IMG/VR virus record: IMGVR_UViG_3300010278_000172
DNA: 64,000 nucleotides
DNA from: an uncultured virus (IMG/VR IMGVR_UViG_3300010278_000172)
Taxonomy: Duplodnaviria; Heunggongvirae; Uroviricota; Caudoviricetes
Reading direction: 5' to 3' (one strand)
The notes below the pieces were generated by a model. The model saw only the letters and a program-made list of their open reading frames with translations. It had not been told where the DNA came from and made no database searches. The position numbers were made by a program, and so were the translations under genes. Shown here piece after piece: positions 3,158 to 54,620 of this stretch (the stretch's first letter is position 1; each line of letters starts with the position of its first letter).

Positions 3158-3175
3158 ACATAAGGAGGTAAGACA

Positions 3176-3908: not shown

Positions 3909-4018
3909 GAAATAGGCTTGAATGGTCGGCAGTATCATTGGACAGAGCGAAAGCAAGGACAGTCTGGCGGTGCTATTGGCAGAGTAGAGCTTAATAATTT
4001 TTTTATTTACATTCTGCG

Positions 4019-4114
4019 GACATTTGACAGCAAGTGACAACAAATGTGTCCGTAATCCAATCCAATCCGAATCCAAATCCAAATCGGGAAACCAATACAA
4101 TATTTGCTCGGAGC
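4019..4114 (+). repeat. Non-coding copy of an internal segment of the replication initiator gene
   Basis: 45 bp identical (4036-4080 = 12030-12074), 15 bp identical (4019-4033 = 11993-12007), similar flank to 4114/12108. Confidence 0.9.
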
Positions 4115-4147
4115 TTCAAGCAGCTCCAAGCCGCAGGAGGTGACATT

Positions 4148-4579
4148 TTGTATTTAGCGGGAAACTTAAAATTCCTTCGGGAACAGATAGGGAAGACACA
4201 ACAGGAGTTGGCGAATCTCTTTGGAGTTGAACAAAAGACAATGTCTTCATGGGAATGCGGAAGTCGAACTCCGGGAATTGAAATAATTGTGGAATTAGCA
4301 AGATATCATGGAGTATCGCTTGACGATCTAGTGTTGAGAGATATGAAGCCTGCAATGCCGGTATATGTGCTCAATCTTATGTATTTGCGTAAAAAGCATG
4401 GTATGACACAACAGGACATATCTGAATTGCTAGGTTACAGAGGGAAACAAGGGTACAACGCAATTGAAACGGGAAAAGCAAAGCCGACAATAGACATCTT
4501 AGAAAAACTAGCAGATTTCTTTGGTGTAACTATGGACCAGATTGTTAAACAAGATTTATCGCAGGAGGTGAGCGAATGA
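4148..4579 (+). CDS. Tandem double-HTH XRE regulator
   Basis: Two XRE repeats (NLKFLRE...; NLMYLRK...); TTG start at 4148 chosen from the AGGAGG RBS. Confidence 0.8.
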   Translation: MYLAGNLKFLREQIGKTQQELANLFGVEQKTMSSWECGSRTPGIEIIVELARYHGVSLDDLVLRDMKPAMPVYVLNLMYLRKKHGMTQQDISELLGYRGKQGYNAIETGKAKPTIDILEKLADFFGVTMDQIVKQDLSQEVSE

Positions 4580-5877: not shown

Positions 5878-6124
5878 ACAGTTCGAGGAGGCATTGAAAT
5901 ATGCCAGACATAAGCAGGAGTACATATACCAGCGTGAGCGAAGACAGGTTGTGTTACAGCATTGGTATCTTGTGAAGCTCACAGAGGAATATGTGAGAAA
6001 CCTTGCTTTTTCAAAATTCACTATGGATTTATGCAGAACATTGCGTGATATGGAAAAAGAGCACTCGATCAGAAATCAGAGTGCCCCTACGGATAACCAT
6101 ATTGTAGCAGTTCCTGCTTTATAA
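5816..6124 (+). CDS. Hypothetical protein
   Basis: ORF with RBS in early operon. Confidence 0.55.
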   Translation: MKEIVEKREVEELLGCEITDEQFEEALKYARHKQEYIYQRERRQVVLQHWYLVKLTEEYVRNLAFSKFTMDLCRTLRDMEKEHSIRNQSAPTDNHIVAVPAL

Positions 6125-6160
6125 ATCAAGCAAATATTACACAATATGGAGGTTTTATCT

Positions 6161-7318
6161 ATGAACAATTCAAATGCTTTGGCTGAAATTCAGTCCAAAT
6201 ATCCAAACTGCAATCTGCTGTTACCAGCAGCTACATCAGTGCAGATTAACCCATTTTATAAGTGCTCCGTTATGGAAGTGGTGGCGGACACAGCACCAAG
6301 CTCAGGAGATATCTTCTCGGTCGGAAAGGTAAAGACTGGAGAGGATGGAAAAGGAAAAGCCATATATGAGGATGTTTTCTCACCTGCAAAGCCACTTCTT
6401 ATGAAGCTGGCAACTGCGGCAGGAATCCAGTTCCACCCTGAGTACACGACAGTTATAAGAGAGAATACAAACACCTATGTTGGAAAGGCATACGGAGCAG
6501 TAAGACTTCCGGATGGAAGTTACAAGACGCACATGGAAACAAAGCGTATCTGCCTTGATGATGAAGAGTCGAAGTACCGCCTTGAATTTATGGACAAGTC
6601 AATTATGGGAATCCATGATTGGAGAGCTGCCAAGGCCGCCTCTGAAATGTTTAAAGGGGAGTGGAAAGATGATCCGGAGAAGATGAATCAGTGGGGCGAG
6701 CCGGAGAAATATTATGTCATTGCTGACAGTGACAGGGAAAAGTATATCGAGAGGTCAATCTTGGTGAATATGACACTTCTCAGAAAGACTGCTTCTGAAA
6801 AAGCACAGACGGGAGCAATCCTCAGAGTTATCAGAGCATTGCTTGGTATTAAGGGTACATACTCAAAGGCAGAATTGGAGAAGCCGTTTGTTGTTCCTAC
6901 AGTAACATTTGCACCAGATTACACGGATCCTAAAGTGAGAAGTGCAATGCTCCAGCAGGGGATGAATTCCATGGGGAATATGTTCGGAGCTTCATCCACA
7001 CCGCCTGCAATCTCCACTGCATTTTCTGGCGAAGCATTTTCGTCAGACTTTAATCCGGAGGATGAAATTGACAATCCTGCATTTGCTTCCGAACAGGCTG
7101 AGGATAGTGATGGGGCTGTGGAAGAGCAGGAGAGAAACTGGTTCGATCAGGACCAGCCGGCACAGGAACAGCCACAGCCGACGGTAAATGGAAATGAGAC
7201 AACGGGATATTACTGTGACGGATGCGGAGCAGAAATCAACGAGAGGGTATATGAGTATTCGCTCAATAAATTTGGAAGACCGCTGTGCATGAAGTGTCAG
7301 AAAGGAGCTGGTAAGTAA
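6161..7318 (+). CDS. Hypothetical recombination-module protein with acidic linker and C-terminal Zn finger
   Basis: Long ORF; C-terminal CDGC...CMKC; sits upstream of the SbcCD-like gene. Confidence 0.6.
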   Translation: MNNSNALAEIQSKYPNCNLLLPAATSVQINPFYKCSVMEVVADTAPSSGDIFSVGKVKTGEDGKGKAIYEDVFSPAKPLLMKLATAAGIQFHPEYTTVIRENTNTYVGKAYGAVRLPDGSYKTHMETKRICLDDEESKYRLEFMDKSIMGIHDWRAAKAASEMFKGEWKDDPEKMNQWGEPEKYYVIADSDREKYIERSILVNMTLLRKTASEKAQTGAILRVIRALLGIKGTYSKAELEKPFVVPTVTFAPDYTDPKVRSAMLQQGMNSMGNMFGASSTPPAISTAFSGEAFSSDFNPEDEIDNPAFASEQAEDSDGAVEEQERNWFDQDQPAQEQPQPTVNGNETTGYYCDGCGAEINERVYEYSLNKFGRPLCMKCQKGAGK

Positions 7319-7758
7319 TGAAACTGATTAAGATTTCAACGGACCTTGAACTGACTGTGCATGATTTTCCGACAGGAACACATTCAGAACAGAACGATTA
7401 CCTTAGAGGACTGATTGGAAATGACTGCGAGCTGTATGAGCATGTTATGCCAGAGCGATTATATACAGACTTGAAGATGAAAGACCGACCAACAAAGATA
7501 CCGGGACAGTGCGTGAGCATGCTGATTGATGAGGAGGGGCGATTAAAGCCAAACACACCAAACCTCATTGGAAGCTATCTTTATAAAACAGACGAGCATA
7601 ATCAGCCAATTGTGGGAAATGTGCTCTTTGTTGGCGAAGAATGGAGCGGTGATGGTATCGACTTCTGTGGATTGGAGGAGGAGACATTTAAGCTTCTGGA
7701 ACTCGAATTACACAATATGATTATGGCTATGAAAGCCACTATGGAGGTGTTGAAATGA
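7318..7758 (+). CDS. DUF3846-like protein
   Basis: LIDEEGRLK..PNLIGSYLY...IVGNV pattern. Confidence 0.6.
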   Translation: MKLIKISTDLELTVHDFPTGTHSEQNDYLRGLIGNDCELYEHVMPERLYTDLKMKDRPTKIPGQCVSMLIDEEGRLKPNTPNLIGSYLYKTDEHNQPIVGNVLFVGEEWSGDGIDFCGLEEETFKLLELELHNMIMAMKATMEVLK

Positions 7759-10700
7759 AGATATTACATACAGCTGACTGGCATCTTGGAACATTCCGAA
7801 GCCCAGTCAAGGACGGAGTAAATCTCCGAACAGAGGACACGAAAAGATGTCTGGATGAACTGATCAGAGTGGCAAATGAGGAAAAACCGGATTACTCGCT
7901 TGTATCTGGTGACATATTCCATGTTGGCCGCCTGTGGTCCGACAGGTGCTGCGAGGAAATTATCACTGCAATTCATTATATCAGAGAGCTTGCGGCAGTA
8001 TCAAAGCAGGTCGTTGTTATGAGAGGCACTCCAAACCATGACGGATCAGGACAGTTCAATGTCCTATCTGAAATGTTTGCAGATGTTCCGAATGTTCATG
8101 TGGTGATTACCCCACAGGTAATTTCATTTGATGATGTTGATATTGCGGTGCTCCCGGGATTTGACAGGGGAGTGTTCAGAGCTAATCATCCGGGATTGTC
8201 AAGTGATGAAGAAAATGTGGTGTTTACCAATGAATTATCAAATATTGTAACAGGGCTGAAAGCACAATGCTCTCCAGAAAAGAAAAGTATTCTGATGGCA
8301 CATTATACGGTACCAGGATGCAATACCGAGAGCGGACAGACAATGATGCTCACACAGTTTGAGCCAATCATTCCGCAGGAGGCTTTATTGGCGGCCAATT
8401 ACAATCTGGTTGCTTTAGGACATATTCACAGACCACAGAAGATAATGCACAGAGACTGGTATTATTCCGGTGCGATAAATGCCATGAACTTTAATGATGA
8501 GGGACAGCAGAGGGGCTTTTGGATTCACAACTGGCACGAGCTGGGAACGTGGCAGAGTATTTTCCATGAAACACCTATCAGAGAGTTTGCAACCATTGAA
8601 CTCAATGATGATGATGTGACACAGATAAATATGCAGGCTATGGATTTTGTTGCTACTGAGAAGTGGAGAGGACAGATCGATGGAAAGATTGTCCGTGTTC
8701 ATTATAGCTGCACCGCAGAAAACAGCAAGGCTCTGAATAAGGCAACTTTGGAAAGAGAGCTTCTGGAAGACGGAGCATTTATGGTGTGGGAAATTCTTCC
8801 GGACAAAATAGATGAATTCGCCAACAGAACACAGCTTGAAAATGCCACGGATCCAGAAGCGAACCTTATTAAGTATCTTGAGGAAAAGCAGGTACCGCAG
8901 GAAAGAATACAGGAACTTGTATTAAAGGCAAGACCGATTATTGCTGAAGCTGAGGCAAACATGACAGCGACAGCAAATAGCGGAACATTTGAACCTGTAG
9001 AAATTGCTGTTAAGAATTATCGTAACTACGAAGAGGAAACATTTAATTTCGAGGATATCACTTTCTGCACAATCAACGGTCAGAATGGAGCAGGAAAGAG
9101 CAGCTTGTTTATGGATGCGATTATCGACTGCCTTTATGAAGAACCGAGAGAGGGTGTAATCAAGGATGATACAGGAAAGGCACCATGGCTTAGAAATGAT
9201 GAAAGTGTCCGTTCTGGTTCGATTATGTTTACATTCCGTATCGGAGAGAAAAAGTATCGTGTTACACGAACCAGAGCCCGTTCCGGAAAAGGAACTTTGA
9301 ATATCTCCCAGCTTGTTGAGAATGAATGGAAAGATTGTTCCAAAGAACGATACAACGATACCCAGCAGGAAATATTGAACATCCTCGGAATGGACAGCTT
9401 TACATTCAAGTCATGTGCTCTGATTATGCAGGATCAGTACGGATTATTTCTACAGGCGAAACCAGAGGAAAGAGTTGAAGTCCTTGGAACACTTCTTGGA
9501 CTTGGAGTGTATCAGCTAATGGAGAGAATCGCTTCTGACAAGGCGAAAGTGAATGGGGCTAAGAACAGGGATTTGAAGCAGGAAATCACAATTCATAATG
9601 TTACAATTGCAGAATTTGGCAAGCCGGACGAAGAACTGGAAGCATGCAAGACGGAATTGACAGAGCAGGAAGCCAGACTGCAGGCAAAGATTAATGAGAG
9701 AGACCAGAAGAAACTTATCCTGTCGAATCAGCAGGAAGCCGCAGAAAGGCGAAAGAAAGCTCTTGCAGCTGTTACAACCTTACAGGCAAAAAAGACCATT
9801 GCAGAGCAGAACAGAGCTACACAGCAGGCGATAGCAGACAGTAGTTCGGCAACTCTCGCCCAGAAGCCTGAAATAGAGGAAAAGATTGCTGAAAGAAATG
9901 ATTTGTTGAAGCGGGAACTGGAACTTGCAGGACAGTCAGCACTCTATACCACAAAGAAACAGGAGGCTGAAAATCTTGCAAAGCAGGCTGAAAGTGAACA
10001 GAAGAACATTCTGGAGTTGCAGGCTGCTTTACAGAAGAAACAGGATGAAAAGAATGCAATGATACTGGATTCGGTCAATGATGGTGAGGTCAGGCAGAAA
10101 GCCGAAACATACACCAAAAAGAAAGCAGAGTTAGAGGATATGCAGGAAAAAGCTGTTGCATACCAGAAAGCAAAAACCGAATACTCTGCGGCAGTTTTCC
10201 ATGAAAGCGAGACAAGGTCAAGCTTTGACAGGGAGAAGCAGAAAGCGGACGAGCAGAAACAGGTTCTTGAAAAGAAAGTTGCAATTTTGAACGAATCAGG
10301 ATGTGTGGATATCGAGAAAGCACACTGTAAATTCTTGCAGGATGCCATTGAAGCAAAGGAACAGCTGGCAGTACATGAGGCATTGTATGTAGACATTGCC
10401 GCTCGTAGAGATTGCGAACTTGAAAAGAGCAGACAGGCAATAGCGGACAAACAGGCTGAAATGGATGCGATAGGATATGATGCGGCTGCTTTAACAGTCC
10501 TGCAAAACGAATGTGCAACATTGCTTCCGTATGTGGCACAGCTCGAAAAAATCAACCAGAGGGAAAACAATCTCGCTTTGATTAAGGCGGCTTTGGAACA
10601 TTTAAAGTCAAATATATCAGAAGCAGAAAACAGGCTTGCTGAGGTCAAATTAAAGGGCACACAGGCAGAAACAGAGCGTGATATATATGCCAAAGCGTTT

Positions 10701-11600
10701 GAAGAACATGTGCATGTGCTTAGTGCCATTACTGCTCTTGATCCGTGGGTAGAAAAGGAAAAAATGCTCCCAGTAGCAGAGGAAAGAAATGCAACAGCAT
10801 TGAACAGGGTTCTGGAGTTGACAGCAGAAATTACCGGTATCGATGATGAAATCTCAGAGAGACAGGCAGAGGCTGATAAAGAGATACTTGCTATTGCGGG
10901 AATGGAAGAGGCTCAGGCGATTGTAAACGGACTGGATACAGAAGTGAATGCCATTAACAGCATGGTAAAGGAAAAACAGATGCGAATTGGAGCTTTACAG
11001 CAGAAATCGGAACAGATTGCAAAGTTGAAGCAGGATATTGCAGCTTTACAGGACAAGCAGGTGGAATATGCCAAGGAGACAGCTGATTACGATACATTGA
11101 AAGTCGCATTTAGCCAGAGCGGTGTGCCACATCAGATTATCCGTTCTATTATTCCACATCTGACAGCTACAGCAAATACCATTCTTGGACAGATGACTGG
11201 CGGAAAAATGGGAGTGGAGTTCAGACTGGAGAGACTCCAAAAAAATGGAAAGGAAAAGGTATCTTTGGATATTTACATCGAGGAATATGGTAAGTCGGTG
11301 CTTCCATACCTTTCAAAATCCGGTGGAGAGAAAGTTAAGTCTTCATTATCGGTAATTCTTGCATTGGCAGAGATTAAATCATCTTCAGCAGGAATCCAGC
11401 TCGGAATGCTCTTTATTGATGAACCTCCATTCTTGGACGGGGACGGAATACAGGCATATTGCGACGCATTGGAGACAATACAGAGCCGATACAGCAACAT
11501 TAAAATAATGGCTATCACTCATGATCCGACAATGAAAGCCAGATTCCCTCAGAATTTGGATGTAGTCAAAACGGAAAATGGTAGCAAGGTAATTTATTAA
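7755..11600 (+). CDS. Single-chain SbcD(Mre11)-SbcC(Rad50) nuclease-ATPase fusion
   Basis: Metallophosphoesterase motifs HTADWHLG, GDIFH, NHD, ALGHIH, then Walker A GQNGAGKSS, long coiled coil, KSGGE signature, LFIDE Walker B, ITH switch. Confidence 0.92.
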   Translation: MKILHTADWHLGTFRSPVKDGVNLRTEDTKRCLDELIRVANEEKPDYSLVSGDIFHVGRLWSDRCCEEIITAIHYIRELAAVSKQVVVMRGTPNHDGSGQFNVLSEMFADVPNVHVVITPQVISFDDVDIAVLPGFDRGVFRANHPGLSSDEENVVFTNELSNIVTGLKAQCSPEKKSILMAHYTVPGCNTESGQTMMLTQFEPIIPQEALLAANYNLVALGHIHRPQKIMHRDWYYSGAINAMNFNDEGQQRGFWIHNWHELGTWQSIFHETPIREFATIELNDDDVTQINMQAMDFVATEKWRGQIDGKIVRVHYSCTAENSKALNKATLERELLEDGAFMVWEILPDKIDEFANRTQLENATDPEANLIKYLEEKQVPQERIQELVLKARPIIAEAEANMTATANSGTFEPVEIAVKNYRNYEEETFNFEDITFCTINGQNGAGKSSLFMDAIIDCLYEEPREGVIKDDTGKAPWLRNDESVRSGSIMFTFRIGEKKYRVTRTRARSGKGTLNISQLVENEWKDCSKERYNDTQQEILNILGMDSFTFKSCALIMQDQYGLFLQAKPEERVEVLGTLLGLGVYQLMERIASDKAKVNGAKNRDLKQEITIHNVTIAEFGKPDEELEACKTELTEQEARLQAKINERDQKKLILSNQQEAAERRKKALAAVTTLQAKKTIAEQNRATQQAIADSSSATLAQKPEIEEKIAERNDLLKRELELAGQSALYTTKKQEAENLAKQAESEQKNILELQAALQKKQDEKNAMILDSVNDGEVRQKAETYTKKKAELEDMQEKAVAYQKAKTEYSAAVFHESETRSSFDREKQKADEQKQVLEKKVAILNESGCVDIEKAHCKFLQDAIEAKEQLAVHEALYVDIAARRDCELEKSRQAIADKQAEMDAIGYDAAALTVLQNECATLLPYVAQLEKINQRENNLALIKAALEHLKSNISEAENRLAEVKLKGTQAETERDIYAKAFEEHVHVLSAITALDPWVEKEKMLPVAEERNATALNRVLELTAEITGIDDEISERQAEADKEILAIAGMEEAQAIVNGLDTEVNAINSMVKEKQMRIGALQQKSEQIAKLKQDIAALQDKQVEYAKETADYDTLKVAFSQSGVPHQIIRSIIPHLTATANTILGQMTGGKMGVEFRLERLQKNGKEKVSLDIYIEEYGKSVLPYLSKSGGEKVKSSLSVILALAEIKSSSAGIQLGMLFIDEPPFLDGDGIQAYCDALETIQSRYSNIKIMAITHDPTMKARFPQNLDVVKTENGSKVIY

Positions 11601-11651
11601 GTCAGGAGCTGGAGGGGGGCACTCTCCAGCATCCGAAAGGAGGATGATCGA

Positions 11652-12437
11652 ATGCCAAACAGGATAATCAAGGAGAGCATCTGCAGGAGCGAAGAAATAG
11701 ATTCTTTATCTTGGTTCGAGGAAGTTCTGTTTTATAGATTGATTGTAACCTGTGACGACTTCGGCAGATACGACGGAAGAGCAAAGATAATCAAGGGAAG
11801 CTGCTTTCCTCTGAAAGATATTACGGAAAAAGATATAGATAAGGCGCTTGGTAGGTTGTCGGCGGTGGGCTTGGTCAGAGTGTATGAGGCACAGGGAAGA
11901 CCGTACCTGCAATTGGTAACTTGGGCGGATCATCAGAGAATTCGTAATCAAAAGAGCAAGTATCCCGGATTTTCAGAGGATTGTGAATTGCTGACATTTG
12001 ACAGCAAAGGTCAGCAGATAAAAACATCAGACAACAAATGTGTCCGTAATCCAATCCAATCCGAATCCAAATCCGAATCGGAAACCAATACAAATATATG
12101 CTCCGAGCAGACAGTAGCTGCGGAGCCGCCAGTAATAGGTATCATGATGAATACTGGTGAAGAATACCCGATTACACAGAGTTATGTTCTTGAACTCGCA
12201 GAATTATATCCTGCTGTTGACATTATGCAGGAACTAAGAGCGATGAAAGGCTGGTGTGATGCTAATCCAAGGAAACGGAAAACAGCAGGAGGAATGAAAC
12301 GATTTATCAATGCTTGGATTTCAAAGGTCCAGAACAGAGGTGGAACACCTGGTTATACGCAATCTTACAGTCAGACAGCCGGCGGCTCAAAGGTAGAGCA
12401 GTTTGCACAAGGAGCAAGGGAGTGGGCGAATGAATAA
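11652..12437 (+). CDS. Phage replication initiator / replisome organiser
   Basis: MPNRIIKESI...DDFGR N-terminus typical of phage initiators; central low-complexity linker with DNA repeats; followed by loader gene. Confidence 0.75.
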   Translation: MPNRIIKESICRSEEIDSLSWFEEVLFYRLIVTCDDFGRYDGRAKIIKGSCFPLKDITEKDIDKALGRLSAVGLVRVYEAQGRPYLQLVTWADHQRIRNQKSKYPGFSEDCELLTFDSKGQQIKTSDNKCVRNPIQSESKSESETNTNICSEQTVAAEPPVIGIMMNTGEEYPITQSYVLELAELYPAVDIMQELRAMKGWCDANPRKRKTAGGMKRFINAWISKVQNRGGTPGYTQSYSQTAGGSKVEQFAQGAREWANE

Positions 12438-24344: not shown

Positions 24345-24743
24345 GTGATGATAGACATGAAGATAGTTTGCATTTCAGACTATGCAATACATCATCGAAT
24401 AGGCAGGAGCGAGCCAACAGGAACTACATACACTACACGATTTGGAAATACTAGACAGAAAAATGTGTTCAAGGAATTCTACAAGACCAATATAGGGGAA
24501 TTTACTCCAGAAAAGTGGTTGGAAGCTACCTTACAGATAATACAGACACTTATGGAAAATGAACTTCTGGAGGAAATAAAGGAACATGTCGCAGGTCATT
24601 GTGTGTGGCTTAAAAATGATAAGGAGATTGAAGAATACTCGGCATCCTGTTTAGCTTCTGGGGCATATATGTACTGGGGAGATTTTAAGGACAAGAGACT
24701 ACCGGCACATAAGGTATTTATCTTTGAGGGAGGTGATTTCTGA
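24345..24743 (+). CDS. Hypothetical protein
   Basis: 132-aa ORF in operon. Confidence 0.6.
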   Translation: MMIDMKIVCISDYAIHHRIGRSEPTGTTYTTRFGNTRQKNVFKEFYKTNIGEFTPEKWLEATLQIIQTLMENELLEEIKEHVAGHCVWLKNDKEIEEYSASCLASGAYMYWGDFKDKRLPAHKVFIFEGGDF

Positions 24744-24955
24744 TGGCAGTCTGTATGGAATGCGGAAGAAAATTGAGAAGCCAACAAAGCAAGGAAGTAG
24801 GATACGGACCGGTATGTTATAAGAGAGTGTTCGGTACCAGTATGCGGATCCGTGATGGAGATTCAAAAACAGGTACTGCTTCAGACGATTTTCCATATTA
24901 TGAAATACCAGGGCAAATGTCGATTGAGGATTTTATAAAAGCAGATGAAAAGTAA
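24743..24955 (+). CDS. DUF6011-like Zn-finger protein
   Basis: CMECGRKL...S...GYGPVC. Confidence 0.65.
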   Translation: MAVCMECGRKLRSQQSKEVGYGPVCYKRVFGTSMRIRDGDSKTGTASDDFPYYEIPGQMSIEDFIKADEK

Positions 24956-25047
24956 AAGGAGAGTGCTTTCGCAACCCTCCCAACAGACAGTTAGATTATA
25001 TCATAATTCGTTATGAATTTGAAATAAAAAAGAAGGAGGGCGACAGC

Positions 25048-25647
25048 ATGGACAGCCAATCAACAGAAGAAAGAGCAGAAAAAGTTATAATAGCTCTTAC
25101 ACCAGAACAATTGAAGGATATTTGTGCAAATGCAGCTGAAATTGGAGCAAAGGAAGCATTAAAAACCTATGATCAGGAAAGAAAAAAAGATCAGGGAAAA
25201 CGGGCAGACAGAAGATTGCGAAATACAAAGCTGCTCCTGCGTAATTATCACATGCTCAAAGAACATGCGGAAAACTCAGTTTTCGGGCGAACACAGATGG
25301 AGGAATCGGCTTTGGATATCTTGGAATCAATGATGAATCTTTATGACAATGAGGTAATCATTGAAAGTATCAAGAGAAGTGCAACCAGAACGGCTATTAT
25401 CGTATCGCATATCGAGACGATGTTCGGTTTGTATGATGCCTATTGTGAAAAATCTCCGAACCAGGATATAGACCGTAGGAGATACGAGGTGGTTTGGGAT
25501 AAATACATGGCAGAGCCGGTTCTTACCGTAAAAGAGATTGCGGCAAAACACAATATGTCAAAGGAAAATGTGTATTCCGATTTGAGAGTTGCAGAGGAAA
25601 GATTGACCGCTCTTATATTCGGGGTGGACGGATTGAAAGTACGATAA
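25048..25647 (+). CDS. Putative late-gene transcription regulator (C-terminal sigma-region-4-like HTH)
   Basis: LRNTKLLLRNY and LTVKEIAAKHNMSKENVY; last early gene, directly before a promoter. Confidence 0.65.
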   Translation: MDSQSTEERAEKVIIALTPEQLKDICANAAEIGAKEALKTYDQERKKDQGKRADRRLRNTKLLLRNYHMLKEHAENSVFGRTQMEESALDILESMMNLYDNEVIIESIKRSATRTAIIVSHIETMFGLYDAYCEKSPNQDIDRRRYEVVWDKYMAEPVLTVKEIAAKHNMSKENVYSDLRVAEERLTALIFGVDGLKVR

Positions 25648-25672
25648 AGCCACCGTCTACAAAATAATTACA

Positions 25673-25701
25673 TTGACATCACAGCTTATAAATGGCAAAA
25701 T
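25673..25701 (+). promoter_or_regulatory. Putative late promoter
   Basis: TTGACA-17 bp-CAAAAT with TG at the extended -10 position. Confidence 0.55.
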
Positions 25702-25733
25702 CGTATTTGTAAAATTCTAAATCAAACGTCGGG

Positions 25734-25766
25734 GAAGTCTGCAGAGTTGTTGCAGGCTTCTTTTTT
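25734..25766 (+). terminator. Intrinsic terminator-like hairpin just downstream of the late promoter
   Basis: GAAGTCTGCA-loop-TGCAGGCTTC followed by T6. Confidence 0.65.
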
Positions 25767-25849
25767 GATGCAAACTTTCCGAGAAAGGAGAGACGATTGA
25801 ACAGGAAATGCACCTGCTCCTCCAGAATAATATTGATTGGAGGATAATA

Positions 25850-27235
25850 ATGAATTACACAATTATGGTGCTGGCTGCTTATGCGGTAATTATGATTGCG
25901 GCAACAGTACTTATGACAAACAAAGAGAAAAGCGTCGAAAGGTTTTGTGTTGGAAATAGAAATACAGGATGGTTTATATCTGCATTAAGCATTGCAGCTA
26001 CATGGATATGGGCTCCTGCACTATTTACATCAACAGAGAATGCTTATACCAAAGGCTTTGCAGGGCTGTTTTGGTTTCTGGTACCTAATGTGCTTTGCCT
26101 CATATTCTTTATTCCGTTTGCTAGGAGAATAAGAAAAGAAATGCCGGAAGGAATCACACTGTCTGGATATATGCACCAGAAATACCAGTCTGAATCGGTA
26201 AAAAATATTTACCTGTTTCAGCTTGGAGCATTATCGGCATTATCTACAGGAGTCCAGTTATTGGCAGGAAGTAAAATATTAAGTATGCTGACAGGCATTC
26301 CATTCTGGATCATGACAGTAATCATGGCTGTGATTGCCTATTCGTATTCACAGTTCTCTGGAATAAAGGCTTCGATACTGACGGATTCTATACAGATGGT
26401 CTTTATGTTGATTGCAAGCGTTTGCTTTGCAGTTTTCGGCATTAAGAATGGTGGTGGTATTCAAAATATGTTCGCAGGAATTGGCGGATATACAGGAGAG
26501 TGCAGCTCCCTTTTCTCTGCAAAAGGTATAGAGATATTTCTTGGTTTTGGACTCCCCACAACAGTTGGGCTTATCTCGGGACCATTTGGCGACCAATGTT
26601 TTTGGCAGAGAGCATTTTGTGTAAAGAAAAATCGAATAGGAAGGGCTTTCTTTGTTGGAGCAATTCTATTTGGCATGGTGCCATTGTCAATGGGAATCCT
26701 TGGGTTTGTCGGAGCTGGAATGGGATATACGGCAATTGATACAGGTGTGATTAACTTTGAACTCATTTCAGAGTTATTTCCGAGCTGGGCGGTAATCCCA
26801 TTTTTATTTATGATTGTATCTGGATTATTATCTACGATTGACAGTAATCTGTGTGCAATATCATCCCTCACAACAGACATATTCAAAAAGAATACACTCG
26901 GAAAGACCAAGATTGCCATGGTTGCGCTGTTGGTAATAGGAATTATAGTTGCCAATATCCCAGGGCTTACAGTTACGCATTTGTTTTTAATGTATGGCAC
27001 ACTCAGAGCAGCAACGCTTCTCCCAACAATATTTACATTAAAGGGAGTAAAGCTCAAACCAGAAGGTGTTGTTACTGGTATTGCGACCGCACTGATTATA
27101 GGACTTCCTGTATTTGCTTATGGAAATATCACAGGAACTGCAGCTTATAAAACAGCAGGCAGTCTTTTGACAGTCCTGTTATCCGGAACAGTCGCTTTGA
27201 TTGTAAGCAGAAAGAGGGGGGCAGAGAATGGATAG
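25850..27235 (+). CDS. Sodium:solute symporter family transporter
   Basis: About 12-13 hydrophobic segments; F.VGNR...SIAATWIWA...AY..G, GIKASILTD..Q, WQRAF, LSTIDS. Confidence 0.85.
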   Translation: MNYTIMVLAAYAVIMIAATVLMTNKEKSVERFCVGNRNTGWFISALSIAATWIWAPALFTSTENAYTKGFAGLFWFLVPNVLCLIFFIPFARRIRKEMPEGITLSGYMHQKYQSESVKNIYLFQLGALSALSTGVQLLAGSKILSMLTGIPFWIMTVIMAVIAYSYSQFSGIKASILTDSIQMVFMLIASVCFAVFGIKNGGGIQNMFAGIGGYTGECSSLFSAKGIEIFLGFGLPTTVGLISGPFGDQCFWQRAFCVKKNRIGRAFFVGAILFGMVPLSMGILGFVGAGMGYTAIDTGVINFELISELFPSWAVIPFLFMIVSGLLSTIDSNLCAISSLTTDIFKKNTLGKTKIAMVALLVIGIIVANIPGLTVTHLFLMYGTLRAATLLPTIFTLKGVKLKPEGVVTGIATALIIGLPVFAYGNITGTAAYKTAGSLLTVLLSGTVALIVSRKRGAENG

Positions 27236-28013
27236 CGTACTCGGAAGAAAGCAGCGAATCAAAAACTCTGACTGGATAGAAACTTTTGACAAAATCGAAC
27301 AGCTGATAACCAAAGAAGAACTGGATCAGCTTGTGAATAAGACAATACAGGATATTAAAGCCAAGACAAAGGGAAAGCAAGCCGCCTATGCATGGAGCGG
27401 TGGAAAAGATTCCCTTGTTCTTGGAGAAATTTGCCGTCGGGCAGGAATAAGCTCCTGCGTCCTCGTAATCAGCAATTTGGAGTATAAAGCATTTACGCAA
27501 TGGGTTGAGGATAATAAGCCTCCGGAATTGACAATTATCAATACAGGGCAGGACTTAAAATGGCTTGTTGCCCATCCGCACATGCTTTTCCCACAGGATA
27601 GCAAGTATGCCGCCCAATGGTTTCACATTGTTCAGCACAGAGGACAGGCAAAATACTACAAAGAAAACAATCTTGATATGCTCCTTCTCGGAAGACGAAG
27701 AGCTGATGGGAATTATGTTGGAAAAGGAGATAACATTTATACCAACAGTCAGGGAGTTACAAGATACAGCCCTTTGTCAGATTGGACGCATGAGCAGGTT
27801 TTGGCATATATCCATTATTATAATTTGGCTATGCCGCCTATATATGATTGGAAAAATGGCTATCTGTGCGGAACACATCCTTGGCCAGCAAGGCAATGGA
27901 CAGGAAGTACGGAGAATGCCTGGAGCGAAATCTATGAGATTGACAGCTCCATAGTAAATGAGGCGGCAGAATATTTTGAGAGTGCAAAAGCATTCTTGAA
28001 GACAATAAAATAA
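27228..28013 (+). CDS. PP-loop (PAPS-reductase-like) protein A
   Basis: AWSGGKDS, GRRRADG, PLSDWTHEQV; no ECGLH C-terminus. Confidence 0.8.
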   Translation: MDSVLGRKQRIKNSDWIETFDKIEQLITKEELDQLVNKTIQDIKAKTKGKQAAYAWSGGKDSLVLGEICRRAGISSCVLVISNLEYKAFTQWVEDNKPPELTIINTGQDLKWLVAHPHMLFPQDSKYAAQWFHIVQHRGQAKYYKENNLDMLLLGRRRADGNYVGKGDNIYTNSQGVTRYSPLSDWTHEQVLAYIHYYNLAMPPIYDWKNGYLCGTHPWPARQWTGSTENAWSEIYEIDSSIVNEAAEYFESAKAFLKTIK

Positions 28014-28134
28014 GTTGCTGACATTTGACAGCATTTGCAGACAAAGGATTGCAAGTGCTGTCTTTTGCTATTTGCAGATAGCTTATATATCATACGGATT
28101 TGTTCCTCCAATCAAAATACAGGAGGATACAAAG

Positions 28135-28764
28135 ATGGAAATTATCACAATGAAGCTGGTGGACCTTGTGAAGCCGGAAAAGAATGTCAGAATTCATACG
28201 GAGCAACAGCTGAAGGAGTTCCAAAGAAGTGTCAAAATGTTCGGACAGATCCGTCCGATTGTTGTTGACGAAAACAATGTAATCTTGGCAGGAAATGGTT
28301 TGTATGAAACATTGATTGCCATGGGAAAAGAAACAGCTGATGTTTATAAGTATGACAATCTTACTGAAAATCAGAAAAAGAAGCTGATGATTGCAGACAA
28401 CAAGATTTTCAGCTTAGGTATTGAAAATCTCGATACACTCAATAGCTTTTTAGAAGACCTGCAGGGCGACCTTGATATCCCGGGCTTTGATGAAGACATA
28501 TTAAAGCAGATGGTGTCAGAGGCAGAGGATGTTACAGAAAAGCTCTCCGAGTATGGCACTTTGGATGATGAAGAAATCCAGAGTATTAAAGAAAGCGGAG
28601 AGAGAAAAGAACAGCAGATTCAAAAAGCGGAGGCGGAGCAGGCAACACCAGCACCGCAGCCAATTGCTCAGCCACAACAGGAAATGCCAGAGGACAGTGA
28701 AGATACCACCGAAGTAAAGAAATTTGTTATCTGTCCGAAATGCGGGGAAAAAATATGGCTATAA
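28135..28764 (+). CDS. ParB/Srx N-terminal domain protein with C-terminal Zn ribbon
   Basis: NVRIH, RPIVVDENNVILAGNG, ADNK, CPKCG. Confidence 0.8.
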   Translation: MEIITMKLVDLVKPEKNVRIHTEQQLKEFQRSVKMFGQIRPIVVDENNVILAGNGLYETLIAMGKETADVYKYDNLTENQKKKLMIADNKIFSLGIENLDTLNSFLEDLQGDLDIPGFDEDILKQMVSEAEDVTEKLSEYGTLDDEEIQSIKESGERKEQQIQKAEAEQATPAPQPIAQPQQEMPEDSEDTTEVKKFVICPKCGEKIWL

Positions 28765-29903
28765 AGCGGTGCGAATCCAGTATAGATGTTGTAAAGGCCG
28801 CCAAAATCCGTATAAGAAATGTATTCCAAAACGGATTGCCGGTGTATATGTCTTTCAGCGGTGGTAAGGACAGCCTTTGTATGGCACAGCTTGTTATGGA
28901 GCTTGTGCAGGCAGGGGAAATCAATCCGGCACAGCTTATTGTACAATTTATAGATGAAGAAGCCATTTTCCCTTGCATGGAAGATAAGGTGAGGGAATGG
29001 CGAAAAAGATTTATGTTAATTGGAGCAAAGTTTGAGTGGTATTGCCTTGAGGTAAAACACTACAACTGCTTTAATGAACTGTCCAACGATGAAACATTTA
29101 TTTGTTGGGACAGATATAAAAAAGATGTTTGGGTAAGACAGCCACCATCATTCGCAATCAGAAACCATCCGCTGTTAAGACCTCGCATTGATGCATATCA
29201 GGATTTTCTTCCAAGAATATGCAGCGGAGGAATTACGATTACAGGAATCCGAACAGCGGAATCAGTACAGAGACTGCAGAATATTGCAACTATGCTGAGA
29301 GCAGGAAAGACCATGACGAATAAACACCAGGTATTTCCGATATATGATTGGACCAATAATGATGTATGGCTTTACCTCCTTCGGGAAAAAGTTGACATAC
29401 CAGAGATTTACCTGTTCTTGTGGCAGTCAGGAACACGAAAAGGACAATTGAGGGTATCGCAGTTCTTTTCGATTGACACGGCAAAAAGCCTTGTCAAAAT
29501 GAATGAATATTATCCGGATCTTATGGAACGGATAGTAAGGCGAGAACCGAACGCATATCTGGCCGCCTTGTATTGGGATAGCGAGATGTTCGGTAGAAGC
29601 ACAGCTGCAAGAAAACAAAACGAGAAGGGGATGACGGAAAAAGATTATAAGGCCGCCCTTTTAGAATTGTTTTCTGATATGGATGGAAATTTCCAAACGA
29701 AGCACAAGAGATATGTTGCGGAACGATACAGGAACTTCTTTATGAGTGTTTCTGCTATTGCGGACAATAAGGATTGCAAGGCTATATATGAAGGACTTAT
29801 TTCTGGTGATCCAAAGCTGCGTTCCTATCGTGCTTTATATCAGAGAATCTATGGTAAATACATTACAGAAGCCAAAAAGAAGGAGGGCATGACAAATGGA
29901 TAA
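28755..29903 (+). CDS. PP-loop (PAPS-reductase-like) protein B, IbrA/YbdN-like
   Basis: SFSGGKDS, FIDEEA, GIRTAES..R, PIYDW...DVW, LRVSQ. Confidence 0.8.
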   Translation: MAIKRCESSIDVVKAAKIRIRNVFQNGLPVYMSFSGGKDSLCMAQLVMELVQAGEINPAQLIVQFIDEEAIFPCMEDKVREWRKRFMLIGAKFEWYCLEVKHYNCFNELSNDETFICWDRYKKDVWVRQPPSFAIRNHPLLRPRIDAYQDFLPRICSGGITITGIRTAESVQRLQNIATMLRAGKTMTNKHQVFPIYDWTNNDVWLYLLREKVDIPEIYLFLWQSGTRKGQLRVSQFFSIDTAKSLVKMNEYYPDLMERIVRREPNAYLAALYWDSEMFGRSTAARKQNEKGMTEKDYKAALLELFSDMDGNFQTKHKRYVAERYRNFFMSVSAIADNKDCKAIYEGLISGDPKLRSYRALYQRIYGKYITEAKKKEGMTNG

Positions 29904-30417
29904 GAAATTGAGTAGTCCGCTTTCCACTCTCCAATGGGTAGACAGGGACAGAGTAAAACCAAACGATTACAACCCAAATAAAGTATCGAAGCAGAACTTG
30001 GAATTGCTGAAGCAATCCATACTAACCAACGGATGGACGCTGCCGATTGTCGTGAGACCAGATTTCACGATTATTGATGGCTTTCATCGTTGGACTGTTG
30101 CAGGGGAAGAACCTCTGAAATCAATGCTTGAAGGCAAGGTTCCTGTTGTAATTGTAGAACATAAGGATAAAGCCGGTAATATTTACGGTACTGTAACCCA
30201 CAACAGGGCAAGAGGTACACATTTGCTTGAACCTATGAAAGCGATTGTTAGAGAGCTTATGGGAGAGGGGAAATCTGTTGAAGAAATCGGTAAGCAGCTT
30301 GGTATGAGACCAGAGGAAATATTCCGATTATCGGACTTCTCCAAAGAGGACTTTTTGAATATGATGATTAAACCAAATCAAGGTTATTCAAAAGCAGAGT
30401 TTATAACGAAGATTTAA
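29896..30417 (+). CDS. ParB/Srx-like protein, IbrB/YbdM-like
   Basis: PNDYNPN, PIVV, IIDGFHR, HNRARG, C-terminal HTH. Confidence 0.82.
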   Translation: MDKKLSSPLSTLQWVDRDRVKPNDYNPNKVSKQNLELLKQSILTNGWTLPIVVRPDFTIIDGFHRWTVAGEEPLKSMLEGKVPVVIVEHKDKAGNIYGTVTHNRARGTHLLEPMKAIVRELMGEGKSVEEIGKQLGMRPEEIFRLSDFSKEDFLNMMIKPNQGYSKAEFITKI

Positions 30418-30518
30418 TGTTAAAACAATAAATATTCGTGAGAGTGACACACGGGAGGGCATACACCCTCCCTTTTGTGCGTCCACGATTGCAAAACGAA
30501 CAGGAGAGAGGTGGTGAT

Positions 30519-31328
30519 ATGCCGAGAGCACCGAGCGAGAAAGTAACACAAGCTGAAAAGCTATTCAACGATGGTATGGCAATGGTTGAGATTGCTAAGA
30601 AACTGGAAGTTTCAGACGGAACAGTACGCAGCTGGAAGAACCGGTACGGATGGGGAAAAGCCTCAAAAAAAAACAAGTGCAACGTTGCGAAAAAAAATGA
30701 GAAGAAAAATGCAACGTTGCAAAAGAAAAAGAGGGGAGGTCAACCAAAAAATCAGAATGCAAAAGGCGGTTCTGGCAATCCAAACCCAAACCCTCCACCA
30801 GACAGAACAAAGCATGGCGGTTATGTTCCTGTATTTATGGATGCGTTGGATTCAGATGAGCAGGAACTTCTTGAGTCTATTCCAGAAGATACAGAGCTTC
30901 AACTGATGGAACAGATACAGCTTTTTTCGATTAGAGAGCGAAGAATACTTAAAGCAATCAATAAATACCGCGAACAAAAAGGAGAGGTTGCGGTAATGGA
31001 TGTGAACCGAAGCGAGTCAAAGCGCTCGTTTAAAGACCAAGAGGAAGAGGCAGAGTACGATAGGCGCCAGAAGGAGAAGGTTGATAATAAAGAAATTCTT
31101 CCGGGTAAGTCCTATAATATAGCAACACACACAGCTAATAAGGATATGATCATAGCGAGGCTGGAACAGGAACTTTCTACTGTGCAGAGCAAAAAGACAA
31201 AGGCTATTGAAGCGTTGTCCAAGTATCGCATAGAAAAGGCAAGGCTTGAAAGTGAAAGTGCTGGCAACGATGCGGTTGATGATTGGATTGCAGCTGTATT
31301 GGGAGAGGAAGTGAGCGAAGATGAATAA
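30519..31328 (+). CDS. Terminase small subunit
   Basis: N-terminal HTH (EIAKKLEVSDGTVRSWKNRYGW), GGQPKNQNA, KHG; precedes TerL. Confidence 0.85.
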   Translation: MPRAPSEKVTQAEKLFNDGMAMVEIAKKLEVSDGTVRSWKNRYGWGKASKKNKCNVAKKNEKKNATLQKKKRGGQPKNQNAKGGSGNPNPNPPPDRTKHGGYVPVFMDALDSDEQELLESIPEDTELQLMEQIQLFSIRERRILKAINKYREQKGEVAVMDVNRSESKRSFKDQEEEAEYDRRQKEKVDNKEILPGKSYNIATHTANKDMIIARLEQELSTVQSKKTKAIEALSKYRIEKARLESESAGNDAVDDWIAAVLGEEVSEDE

Positions 31329-32751
31329 GAACTCACGGACATTACGAAGAAAATTCTTCCAGAAGAAAATCCCAATATACAGGAAAAATCCGGTGCTATT
31401 TGCACAAGAGGTATTGCTGTTTGAGCCTGATGATTGGCAAAAACAAGCTTTGATGGATTTGGCAGAAAGCCCGAAGGTTGCAATCAAGTCTGGACAGGGT
31501 GTTGGAAAAACAGGTATGGAAGCTGTTGCTTTGCTATGGTTTTTATGCTGCTATCCCTATCCAAGAATTGTTGCAACAGCTCCTACCAAACAGCAGTTGC
31601 ACGATGTATTGTGGTCCGAAGTCAGCAAGTGGATGAGCAAGTCTCCTTTGCTCTCAGACATCCTCAAATGGACGAAGACCTATATTTATATGGTTGGCAA
31701 CGAAAAGCGTTGGTTTGCCGTAGCTAGGACTGCTACAAAGCCGGAGAATATGCAAGGTTTTCACGAAGATAATATGCTGTTCATTGTTGATGAAGCTTCT
31801 GGTGTTGCAGATCCTATCATGGAAGCAATACTCGGTACTCTTTCTGGTGCAAACAATAAGCTGCTGATGTGCGGAAACCCTACAAGAACATCTGGAACAT
31901 TTTACGATGCTTTCAATGTGGATAGGTCAATATACAGGTGCCATACGGTATCGTCGGCAGATAGCAAGAGGACCAACAAACAGAATATCGAATCTCTCAT
32001 ACGGAAATATGGGAAAGACAGTAATGTTGTTCTTGTCCGTGTGTTCGGAGAATTTCCAAAGCAGGAAGATGATGTGTTTATAGCCCTTTCCATAGTAGAG
32101 CATTGCTGCATGTTGGATTTGCCAGACGATGTTCCTATTAAGCGAATATCATTCGGTGTGGATGTTGCGAGATATGGCTCGGATGAAACAGTTATTGCTA
32201 AGAACGTAGGAGGAAGAATAACGCTTCCTGTATCATTCAGAGGGCAAAGTCTTATGACAACAGTTGGAAAGATTGTGCAGCTCTATAGGCAAGCTATAAC
32301 AGAGTTCCCACGATACAGAGGGAAGATATACATTAACATTGATGATTGCGGCCTTGGCGGCGGAGTTACAGACCGCCTTGAGGAAGTAAAGCAGGAAGAA
32401 AAGCTCACACGAATGGTGATTGTTCCGGTTAATGCCGCAGGTAAAGTTCCGGAAGAAACAATTGGTGATGGGAAGCAGAAAGCCTGTGATATTTACGACA
32501 ATATGACAACATATCTTTGGGGCACAGTGAAAGATGCCTTGATGATGGAGGAAGTAAGTCTGGAAAATGACAATGAGCTTGTCGCTCAGTTTACTTGCAG
32601 GAAATACAGGCTGACGAGCAGGGGAAAGATGCTGCTTGAAAGCAAAGAGGAAATGAAGAAACGAGGAATTGATTCCCCGGATAGAGCAGATGCGGTTGCG
32701 CTGTCTTGCTATCAGAAAAAGACATTCAATATTGGAAGTCTCGTAGATTAG
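31321..32751 (+). CDS. Terminase large subunit
   Basis: Walker A SGQGVGKT, Walker B IVDEA, GNP, nuclease GVDVAR, SPDRADA. Confidence 0.93.
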   Translation: MNKNSRTLRRKFFQKKIPIYRKNPVLFAQEVLLFEPDDWQKQALMDLAESPKVAIKSGQGVGKTGMEAVALLWFLCCYPYPRIVATAPTKQQLHDVLWSEVSKWMSKSPLLSDILKWTKTYIYMVGNEKRWFAVARTATKPENMQGFHEDNMLFIVDEASGVADPIMEAILGTLSGANNKLLMCGNPTRTSGTFYDAFNVDRSIYRCHTVSSADSKRTNKQNIESLIRKYGKDSNVVLVRVFGEFPKQEDDVFIALSIVEHCCMLDLPDDVPIKRISFGVDVARYGSDETVIAKNVGGRITLPVSFRGQSLMTTVGKIVQLYRQAITEFPRYRGKIYINIDDCGLGGGVTDRLEEVKQEEKLTRMVIVPVNAAGKVPEETIGDGKQKACDIYDNMTTYLWGTVKDALMMEEVSLENDNELVAQFTCRKYRLTSRGKMLLESKEEMKKRGIDSPDRADAVALSCYQKKTFNIGSLVD

Positions 32752-54607: not shown

Positions 54608-54620
54608 GGTACGGAATACT

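Follow-up and report, generated by a model that had tools for sequence, protein, structure and literature searches.

Directly before the terminase genes of an uncultured tailed phage of the Caudoviricetes (IMG/VR record IMGVR_UViG_3300010278_000172), a cassette of five genes encodes a transporter of the sodium:solute symporter (SSS) family, two PP-loop proteins and two ParB-like proteins. "The window" designates hereafter the whole stretch of DNA that was analysed, 64,000 nucleotides in length. The five-gene block is a conserved unit and not a chance neighbourhood. Its core is a trio composed of a ParB-fold protein (ParB-Zn), a PP-loop protein homologous to IbrA/YbdN (PP-loop B) and a ParB-like protein homologous to IbrB/YbdM (hereafter IbrB). 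The membrane protein was added to this core in phages of gut Clostridia, and the second PP-loop protein, PP-loop A, is a further and dispensable addition. Most likely, the five genes constitute a single conserved system that acts on DNA and is equipped with a dedicated membrane transporter. The best reading, which is put forward tentatively, would be a DNA-directed and adenylation-dependent function fed by an imported small solute.

Gene identities, protein folds, conserved linkage, the place of the block behind a leader combining a promoter and a terminator, and a predicted contact between the IbrA-like and IbrB-like proteins are established in the following sections. From these elements we infer an action on DNA, an adenylation chemistry, an import activity, the nature of the solute and a purpose in escaping restriction.

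Conservation of the cassette and of its leader

The transporter belongs to a phage-specific clade, with 147 relatives in IMG/VR and 159 in species-representative genomes. Eighty relatives of each set were sampled and the window proteins were mapped on their loci by tblastn. Linkage was counted on loci having at least 4.7 kb of DNA downstream of the transporter gene, that is 58 viral and 69 genomic loci; because the loci were retrieved via the transporter, the counts show the dependence of the transporter on the trio and not the reverse. Downstream of the transporter, the trio is complete at all 58 viral loci and at 65 of the 69 genomic ones, over a range of transporter identities of 54-100%. 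Taken one by one, ParB-Zn is present in 58 viral and 67 genomic loci, PP-loop B in 58 and 66, and PP-loop A in 51 and 61, all four downstream genes being found together in 51 viral and 60 genomic loci. An earlier note on this DNA, in which an uncharacterised modification system had been proposed, considered that the proposal should be given up if the transporter did not co-occur with the PP-loop and ParB genes in relatives; co-occurrence is what the counts display. The architecture, on the other hand, is not one of two pairs of enzyme and ParB but a core trio with an accessory PP-loop A, which is lost in seven of the 58 viral loci.

The slot occupied by the cassette is constant while the families flanking it vary. 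Downstream, the gene of the small terminase subunit (terS) belongs either to phrog_1889 or to phrog_57; upstream, the regulator belongs either to phrog_1558 or to phrog_36. In Anaerotruncus colihominis, for instance, the cassette stands in the identical slot between a phrog_36 regulator and a phrog_57 terS. The phrog_1558 gene (up1558) precedes the transporter in 51 of the 72 viral and 43 of the 75 genomic loci with enough upstream DNA, and phrog_36 substitutes for it elsewhere. The genomic exceptions to the linkage are of several kinds. In locus L230, a truncated transporter has nothing downstream. In L250 (Bilifractor sp., 5992-11908), transporter and PP-loop A stand without the trio, directly before terS, terL (large terminase subunit) and a Mu-type portal gene. 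L252 has the transporter, ParB and PP-loop B, IbrB not being detected, and L255 has the transporter and ParB only, with portal, protease and capsid genes further downstream.

The hosts are Lachnospiraceae, Oscillospiraceae, Anaerovorax and one Clostridioides difficile chromosome. The latter (OX246690.1, 3074998-3088368) carries the full five-gene cassette followed by a terS match, with a transporter identity of 61%. Cultured strains are available among the relatives, namely Acetatifactor muris, Anaerotruncus colihominis and Agathobaculum desmolans. Among 61 genomes around the nearest genome of the window, the phage-type transporter occurs in that nearest genome only (98% identity); matches in 18 others are cellular SSS proteins with at most 29% identity. 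In another relative (L053, 4121-4917), a DUF6275 gene and a gene resembling Tad2 (Thoeris anti-defence 2) are inserted between IbrB and terS. The slot can therefore hold counter-defence genes.

The IbrA-like protein extends well beyond this group, with relatives in 223 cultured-phage records. A transporter aligned over at least 80% of its length was found in two phage records only, one of them close (MT836198, 59.6% identity), and nearly all IbrA-bearing phage records are without this transporter, a pattern to be expected if the transporter is a supplier that joined a core. Other neighbours occur in these phages. Streptococcus thermophilus phage CHPC1148, Lactobacillus phage AQ113 and Flavobacterium phage FCL-2 have a gene for a helicase of the SNF2 family immediately before IbrA or before the ParB-IbrA pair. 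Bacillus phage 035JT001 has the order ParB, PAPS (3′-phosphoadenosine 5′-phosphosulfate) reductase, methyltransferase and, further on, another ParB; a Riemerella phage has two ParB genes, a PAPS reductase gene and then terL.

Faecalibacterium phage FP_Taranis offers a parallel which we count as support. There, a RinA-like regulator is followed by a polytopic membrane protein of 333 residues (gp35), ParB, IbrA, IbrB, two small genes, terS and terL, so that the place of the transporter, ahead of ParB-IbrA-IbrB, is taken by another membrane protein. This protein falls in no Pfam or PHROG family and has 866 relatives. Its comparison with the SSS profile gives an hhalign probability of 8% (E 0.004), with an AMSI-A-W stretch common to both. 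As judged from sequence, it would be at best a remote and shortened SSS homologue, or else an unrelated protein. In P0150, P0166 and P0169, a membrane protein of the Taranis type and a ParB_N domain are found in one open reading frame (ORF) of 394-565 residues; these may be real fusions or artefacts of gene calling. The DUF6275 gene mentioned above occupies the same place in FP_Taranis.

The cassette follows directly after a leader that separates up1558 from the transporter gene, and precedes terS directly, which agrees with the slot between a putative late promoter and terS first assigned to it. A promoter-like site, TTGACA-17-CAAAAT, is located at 25673-25701 and is near the sigma-70 consensus (10/12). 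A second -10-like box, GTAAAATTCTAAATCAAAC, lies at 25709-25727, the box GTAAAATYCTAA standing 8 nt past the promoter-like site. Then comes, at 25734-25766, a strong hairpin with a T-run, of the intrinsic-terminator type. Further downstream, a sequence resembling a Shine-Dalgarno (SD) sequence, GAAAGGAG (25783-25790), is complementary to GCTCCTCC (25816-25823), and this anti-SD box (CTCCTCC), GCTCCTCC, is also complementary to the real SD, TGGAGGA (25838-25844). The order of these elements is kept in 27 aligned leaders, including those of FP_Taranis and of locus L081 (2955-3160). The hairpin stems differ in sequence from one leader to another, and the anti-SD/SD pair has undergone compensatory changes. 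RNAalifold on the 27 leaders retains only a 5-bp GGAG:CUCC helix with little covariation. A search of positions 24500-31000 against Rfam at E≤1 returned no family, so the leader does not correspond to any known riboswitch. Its appearance is that of a late promoter associated with an antitermination target and a translational switch, and it shares with lambdoid late promoters the arrangement with a terminator downstream. This organization is compatible with genes expressed late by antitermination; RNA polymerase would then also read through the hairpins at 28027 and 30453.

The proteins of the cassette

The gene identities proposed in the earlier note hold in Pfam, PHROG and hhalign comparisons. 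PP-loop B is homologous to E. coli YbdN over its full length, including the region that follows the PAPS-reductase domain (hhalign probability 99.8%, E 2e-27, 361 columns, residues 6-381 against 1-395 of 406), which strengthens the IbrA/YbdN likeness first noticed. Pfam DUF3440 does not match it at E≤0.01. Its SFSGGKDS motif contains G42, K43 and D44, which do not vary among 37 sequences. SGGKDS is present in both PP-loop proteins and the C-terminal ECGLH is absent from both, as had been read at the outset. The two proteins are distant from each other (probability 86%, E 5e-6), and in sequence-profile comparison PP-loop A comes closer to true PAPS reductases (yeast PAPS reductase 2oq2_A, E 3e-4).

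AlphaFold models of PP-loop A and PP-loop B have a predicted local distance difference test (pLDDT) score of 93 and 78, respectively. With VIA-align, PP-loop A is superimposed on PAPS reductase 2o8v_A with Z 15.5 (root mean square deviation 3.1, 182 residues aligned) and on CysD 1zun_A with Z 15.4. PP-loop B is superimposed on the reductase of adenosine 5′-phosphosulfate (APS) 4bwv_A with Z 14.5 (deviation 4.5, 186 residues) and on CysD with Z 14.1. Other PP-loop enzymes give Z 13-14.4 against PP-loop A and Z 10-11 against PP-loop B, with FMN adenylyltransferases and yeast Fad1 as exceptions for the latter (Z 11.6-11.9). Foldseek placed NcsA, TtuA and LarE at the top for PP-loop B, and re-ranking by VIA put CysH, CysD and FAD synthase first. 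On these models, the branch of the fold comprising PAPS reductase, CysD and FAD synthase is the best matched by both proteins. No DndC or SspD chain figures in the Foldseek or VIA lists, a fact that carries no weight either way.

None of the named functions of this branch is recovered by family profiles. CysH (NF002537) gives 23.3 and 17.8 against a cut-off of 154, and CysH/CysD scores in NCBIfam are in general far under the cut-offs (another example is 42.7 against 195). The DndC equivalog TIGR03183 gives 29.3 against 290.4. PADLOC matches of PP-loop B to DndC (6e-9) and BrxP (7e-8) span only about 55 residues. PP-loop B has four conserved cysteines, C79, C102, C110 and C122, of which only C79 and C122 align with cysteines of YbdN. 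Enzymes of the CysH/CysD/FAD-synthase branch make or use AMP-X anhydrides (APS, PAPS, FAD). For this reason, adenylyl transfer is favoured over, for example, amidation by ammonia.

IbrB is homologous to YbdM (hhalign probability 99.8%, E 3.9e-29, 41% identity) and is encoded directly after the IbrA-like protein, with an overlap of 8 nt; both points agree with the IbrB/YbdM likeness proposed earlier. Its sequence contains two invariant blocks, DGFHRW and THNRARG, and a stretch resembling a helix-turn-helix (HTH) at 113-145. Prediction of the complex between PP-loop B and IbrB gave 0.76 against 0.00 for the best control. The 0.76 mark is reached by 116 of 157 solved complexes and by two of 215 mismatched pairs, these counts, for which our own alignments were used, being only rough. 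The runs agree in at least 54% of the contacts, with a partner pLDDT of at least 63, and the interface involves residues 144-172 of IbrB and residues 8-20 and 203-237 of PP-loop B. The prediction supports binding of PP-loop B to IbrB via the C-terminal tail of the latter. Searches of the PDB returned no solved complex of the IbrA-IbrB kind.

The first ParB-like protein owes its identity to phrog_620, in line with the first reading. It also matches the N-terminal part of phrog_498 ParB-methyltransferases and, in PADLOC, the N-terminal region of MTase_II (9e-15); it has no Pfam match at E≤0.01. The Zn ribbon which had been attributed to it, and to which it owes the label ParB-Zn, comes down to half a ribbon: C201 and C204, invariant in 37 sequences, form the sole CxxC, at the extreme C terminus, and two such pairs would be needed. 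In our own alignment, the ILAGNGL sequence stands at what we take to be the position of the arginines of ParB box II. Mutation of the box-II arginine abolishes binding of nucleoside triphosphate (NTP), according to a survey (PMC12704722). Given the missing arginines and this requirement, ParB-Zn may be a non-nucleotide-binding adaptor. Partition ParB proteins are a distinct matter, with TIGR00180 scores of 29.2 and 16.1 against 58.45 and no ParA partner found in the annotation of the window.

The identification of the transporter as a sodium:solute symporter was correct. SSF (PF00474) is matched with 81.6 bits against a gathering score of 22.8, and a profile of the clade recovers, among solved structures, DUR3 (1.9e-22, 82.6 bits) and then CHT1 (2e-17), SMCT1, SGLT, NIS and SMVT following at 7e-9 or weaker. 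NCBIfam equivalogs of PanF (68.6 against 328) and PutP (50.6 against 515.5), as well as TIGR00813 (117 against 184), are not reached, and the ESM Atlas bears only an automatic name, "pantothenate permease". The AtDUR3 study (PMC11840088) names W93, W95, T98, Y117, Q124, N305, D312, Y315, W338, E402 and P342 as urea- or proton-site residues. A gap-free HMMER alignment to 9j7c_A was used to map them. Four of the 11 are kept: W93, W95, D312 and P342 correspond to W52, W54, D248 and P278, invariant in 36 sequences. Thus, the W-x-W of transmembrane segment (TM) 1, the aspartate of TM6 and the proline of TM7 of DUR3 are invariant in the phage clade. The seven others, T98, Y117, Q124, N305, Y315, W338 and E402, are replaced by A57, F76, C83, L241, F251, F274 and N333, that is mostly by F, L, A or C, and the named set does not identify the protein as a DUR3. 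On this alignment, the pocket appears to retain the tryptophan pair and the acid and to lose the side chains that hydrogen-bond urea. Because of these retentions and losses, the solute could be, with low confidence, a small polar or cationic compound of the amine type rather than urea.

The wider SSS family comprises 331 clusters at E≤1e-30. One branch at about 30% identity (P0370) has no cassette at its 11 viral loci, and its neighbours have no match in the PDB and none to PP-loop A; no viral locus was found for P0343. A 762-residue SSS protein (P0255) was considered as a possible fusion with a cassette protein and discarded: its only Pfam match is SSF, and it resembles neither PP-loop A nor ParB-Zn nor PP-loop B. 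In kin genomes, the cellular SSS protein closest to the transporter (G035) has 26% identity, and its gene surroundings give no clue.

Proposed function and its alternatives

The tentative reading can be formulated as follows. The cassette would be an accessory module placed at the very start of the late operon (packaging and morphogenesis) of temperate phages of gut Clostridia. Its core enzyme would be a PP-loop ATP pyrophosphatase of the IbrA/YbdN type, held by the C-terminal tail of a ParB protein of the IbrB/YbdM type. The IbrB-type partner would bring an NTP-binding-type N domain and an HTH, the second ParB ending in a tethered CxxC peptide. We propose that the target of the trio is phage DNA, at about the moment when it is packaged, with the ParB proteins bringing the PP-loop enzyme to DNA or switching it on there. 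The enzyme would spend ATP on the adenylation of a group carried either by DNA or by a small molecule. Replacement of the activated group would then leave a covalent mark shielding the packaged genome from host defences. In this lineage of Clostridia phages, two genes would have been added in front, a transporter similar to DUR3 and CHT, importing the small solute that is needed, and PP-loop A, similar to CysH but devoid of the catalytic cysteine tail, handling the imported solute.

A DNA-directed role is made likelier by several observations. Elsewhere, IbrA homologues adjoin genes for SNF2 helicases and for a methyltransferase; in IbrB, a ParB-type N domain is accompanied by an HTH-like stretch; binding between the IbrA-like and IbrB-like proteins is predicted. 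Moreover, a ParB-like protein of phage origin is described as switching on a DNA-modifying enzyme (PMC13229309). In that case, the DNA thymine dioxygenase 5mYOX176 requires ParB176, an adjacently encoded partner acting as an obligate activator, which resembles the association of a ParB-fold partner with a neighbouring enzyme in the cassette. The enzyme is different, 5mYOX176 being an Fe(II)/2-oxoglutarate dioxygenase and not a PP-loop enzyme. Moreover, the ParB proteins of that study are devoid of a DNA-binding domain and could not be trapped in a stable complex, whereas in the cassette IbrB possesses an HTH-like stretch and its interface with PP-loop B is predicted with confidence.

The closest known systems are the IbrA/IbrB and YbdN/YbdM pairs, whose gene order and gene overlap are those found in the cassette. 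The latter differs by a second ParB-fold protein, a second PP-loop protein, a transporter and a fixed place at the head of a phage late operon. We found no biochemical function in print for the IbrAB/YbdNM family, nor anything on a combination of transporter and IbrAB, including that of FP_Taranis; PMC5512222 and PMC12704722 do not mention PAPS, IbrA or IbrB. CysH and CysD provide the best structural matches (Z 14-15.5), but the cassette proteins are without ECGLH and without a CysN partner. A third resemblance is with DndB-DndC, SspD and BrxP, where a ParB-superfamily protein stands beside a PP-loop ATP pyrophosphatase of the PAPS-reductase fold, and weak hidden Markov model matches to DndC and BrxP point the same way. 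However, the DndC cut-off is missed tenfold and the cassette has no gene for an NTPase of the DndD/SspC/BrxC kind, for DndE or for a desulfurase. DndB is, besides, a regulator and not a bound subunit, according to PMC10853773. A protein with a PAPS-reductase domain together with a P-loop NTPase is the minimum for all three known phosphorothioation systems, as stated in a preprint (bioRxiv 10.1101/2024.06.03.597175). No such NTPase (DndD, SspC, BrxC) is encoded by the five genes or their neighbours, and host IscS or SufS could serve as sulfur donor. Since the NTPase partner is missing, phosphorothioation by the cassette is unlikely, and the likeness to DndC and SspD invoked in the earlier note is weakened accordingly (DndC score 29.3 against 290.4).

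Several other explanations may be envisaged. A possible one, though not a probable one, dispenses with DNA chemistry and relates the cassette to regulation or to the start of packaging. Nucleotide-gated ParB clamps near the late promoter or pac, together with the IbrA-like ATPase, would co-activate late transcription or help the terminase, transporter and PP-loop A being an unrelated metabolic moron in a permissive slot. Such a role would account for the invariable position of the cassette between the late regulator and terS, next to an elaborate leader that contains a terminator and a hairpin sequestering the SD, and it is consistent with the HTH-like stretch of IbrB, with the name "co-activator of prophage gene expression" given to the pair in RAST-type annotations, and with locus L250, where transporter and PP-loop A stand without the trio. 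A moron that is merely co-located should not, however, stay linked over 54-100% transporter identity and changing backbones, and the SNF2 and methyltransferase neighbours seen elsewhere point to work on DNA rather than to transcription. To our knowledge, PP-loop enzymes of the CysH/CysD/FAD-synthase branch have no regulatory role. E. coli ybdNM, which is an ordinary repressed chromosomal operon (PMC9068703), would again be compatible with regulation. The transporter gene, because it heads the packaging module, could instead serve to supply counter-ions, polyamines or another cation being imported late to neutralise the DNA to be packaged, without covalent attachment and with separate roles for the PP-loop and ParB proteins. 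This is unlikely: although DUR3 and a choline transporter are the nearest solved relatives, and the pocket retains two tryptophans and an aspartate with further aromatics, such a supply leaves unexplained both the strict coupling to the ParB/IbrA trio and the translational overlap with PP-loop A. Polyamines do occur in phage heads. The references of the DUR3 paper (PMC11840088) cite work on dur3 in polyamine homeostasis, but the DUR3 match is of 82.6 bits only, seven of the 11 named residues differ and the identity of the substrate is tentative.

Two further possibilities start from the PP-loop proteins. In a lysogen, the cassette might be a defence or self-marking system of the host encoded by the prophage, in the manner of Dnd, Ssp or BREX-4, marking host and prophage DNA (by phosphorothioation, for example) or excluding other phages. 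The PADLOC matches of PP-loop B to DndC and BrxP, weak as they are, the DndB-DndC-like pairing of ParB and PAPS reductase and the proximity of the promoter-like site to the sigma-70 consensus would fit. We consider this quite improbable in view of the TIGR03183 score, of the absence from the cassette of a DndD/SspC/BrxC-type NTPase and of a restriction partner, of the strong terminator immediately after the promoter, and of the position of the genes in the late operon and not in the lysogeny module. Auxiliary sulfur metabolism, with both proteins working as PAPS/APS reductases or sulfurylase subunits that boost sulfate assimilation by the host, is how phage annotations and some papers treat phage PAPS reductases (PMC12323421), and the Pfam PAPS_reduct matches would agree with it. 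Yet the ECGLH catalytic tail is absent, the CysH/CysD scores are far under the cut-offs and the linkage to ParB-fold proteins is obligate. Sulfur assimilation by the PP-loop proteins is very unlikely.

A DNA-directed, adenylation-dependent function fed by an imported solute has also to face a number of difficulties. Transport, ATP use and DNA modification are deduced. The only function known to be reported for IbrAB is a different one, activation of prophage eib genes in E. coli. The cassette contains no P-loop or SMC-type NTPase and no cysteine desulfurase. An Fe-S cluster in PP-loop B was envisaged and dropped, only two of the four conserved cysteines aligning with cysteines of YbdN, so that such a site does not characterise the family; in our reading ParB-Zn (ILAGNGL) is apparently without box-II arginines. 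If the transporter is produced only late in infection, little time is left for its action. The membrane protein of FP_Taranis, given its weak likeness to SSS proteins, may indicate that the role of the membrane protein is not transport. In L250, SSS and PP-loop A stand before terS without the trio. Lastly, with terminator-like hairpins at 28027 and 30453, the block might be transcribed as several distinct units.

A bolder version, which appears doubtful, specifies the chemistry. A small metabolite of the amine type would be imported from the gut lumen by the phage transporter and attached covalently to phage DNA after replication, the ParB-guided PP-loop enzyme adenylating a group of the DNA and the solute displacing AMP. 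The adenylated group would be a base carbonyl, or a backbone or terminal phosphate. TilS adenylates a base carbonyl on tRNA. If true, this would define a new class of DNA hypermodification, in which the building block comes from the environment and not from cellular synthesis, and would provide a first biochemical function for the IbrAB/YbdNM family, unexplained for so long.

Few unexplained accessory genes of tailed phages are as common as the IbrA/IbrB-type pairs, one of which is ybdNM of E. coli K-12. The cassette adds to such a pair a dedicated transporter, in hundreds of prophages of dominant gut Clostridia. The transporter thereby offers an experimental handle, since knowing its cargo should give a clue to the chemistry used throughout the family. 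Should the module modify DNA, sequencing, restriction and transfer of gut phage DNA would be affected; if it does not, it would still be a new late-operon function coupled to solute uptake.

Gene map and prophage context

Annotation of all its genes shows that the window is a complete temperate prophage resembling myoviruses. After the repressor come replication and recombination genes, the phrog_1558 gene, the five-gene cassette, terS, terL, portal and capsid genes, then sheath, tape measure and baseplate genes, a diversity-generating retroelement, holin-like and endolysin genes and two minus-strand morons. The positions of the features discussed in this study are collected in the table.

Table. 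Positions in the window of the cassette genes, their leader and the related features
Feature	Position	Strand	Description and matches
Integrase	586-1665	minus	
Repressor	2343-2996	minus	
Lysogeny module	586-4579		
up1558	25048..25647	+	Candidate late regulator; phrog_1558 5.4e-53 (family without assigned function); no Pfam match
Leader	25673..25849	+	Between up1558 and transporter
Transporter	25850..27235	+	SSS family (LeuT fold), 461 residues, about 11 hydrophobic segments; Pfam SSF (PF00474) 6.8e-23; phrog_20720 1e-244 (family without assigned function)
PP-loop A	27228..28013	+	261 residues, PAPS-reductase-like fold, SGGKDS; PAPS_reduct 1.3e-10
Hairpin	28027..28062	+	14 bp, then TTTTGCTATT; between PP-loop A and ParB-Zn genes; terminator-like by scan only
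ParB-Zn	28135..28764	+	ParB fold, acidic variable linker, invariant C-terminal tail FVICPKCGEKIWL with one CxxC; phrog_620 3.7e-52
PP-loop B	28740 or 28755..29903	+	IbrA/YbdN homologue, 387 residues (382 if start 28755); PAPS_reduct 2.8e-14; phrog_2302 7e-99
IbrB	29896..30417	+	IbrB/YbdM homologue; ParB/Srx-type N domain with DGFHRW, HTH-like 113-145, C-terminal tail; ParB_N 5.8e-7 (Pfam); phrog_2159 1.5e-74
Hairpin	30453..30472	+	7 bp, G+C-rich, with T-run; between IbrB and likely terS start
terS	30519 (likely start) to 31328	+	phrog_1889 3.3e-52
terL	31321-32751	+	phrog_2 1.7e-43

The five genes had been described as lying on the same strand and mostly overlapping. All five exist at the coordinates then given, and overlaps join the transporter and PP-loop A genes (8 nt), the ParB-Zn and PP-loop B genes (10-25 nt) and the PP-loop B and IbrB genes (8 nt). 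Between PP-loop A and ParB-Zn, by contrast, there is no overlap but a gap of about 120 nt containing the 14-bp hairpin. The true start of ParB-Zn is the ATG at 28135, which fits the conserved N terminus, and not the TTG at 28015. The likely start of terS is placed at 30519 because the PHROG alignment begins at residue 28 of the ORF. By eye, the C-terminal stretch of up1558 resembles sigma region 4 or an HTH.

Some features of the prophage outside the cassette may be mentioned. The retroelement adjoins the tail-fibre region (54272-55996) and comprises Avd (phrog_3206, 4e-42) and a reverse transcriptase (phrog_1423, 2e-120). The moron pair after the endolysin gene, at 59439-61027 on the minus strand, encodes a gamma-glutamyl cyclotransferase-like protein (phrog_2520) and an amidoligase (phrog_2443), a pairing known from comparative genomics. 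In the early region, at 7755-11600, a very long protein of 1281 residues is a fusion resembling SbcD-SbcC (phrog_100 and phrog_77).

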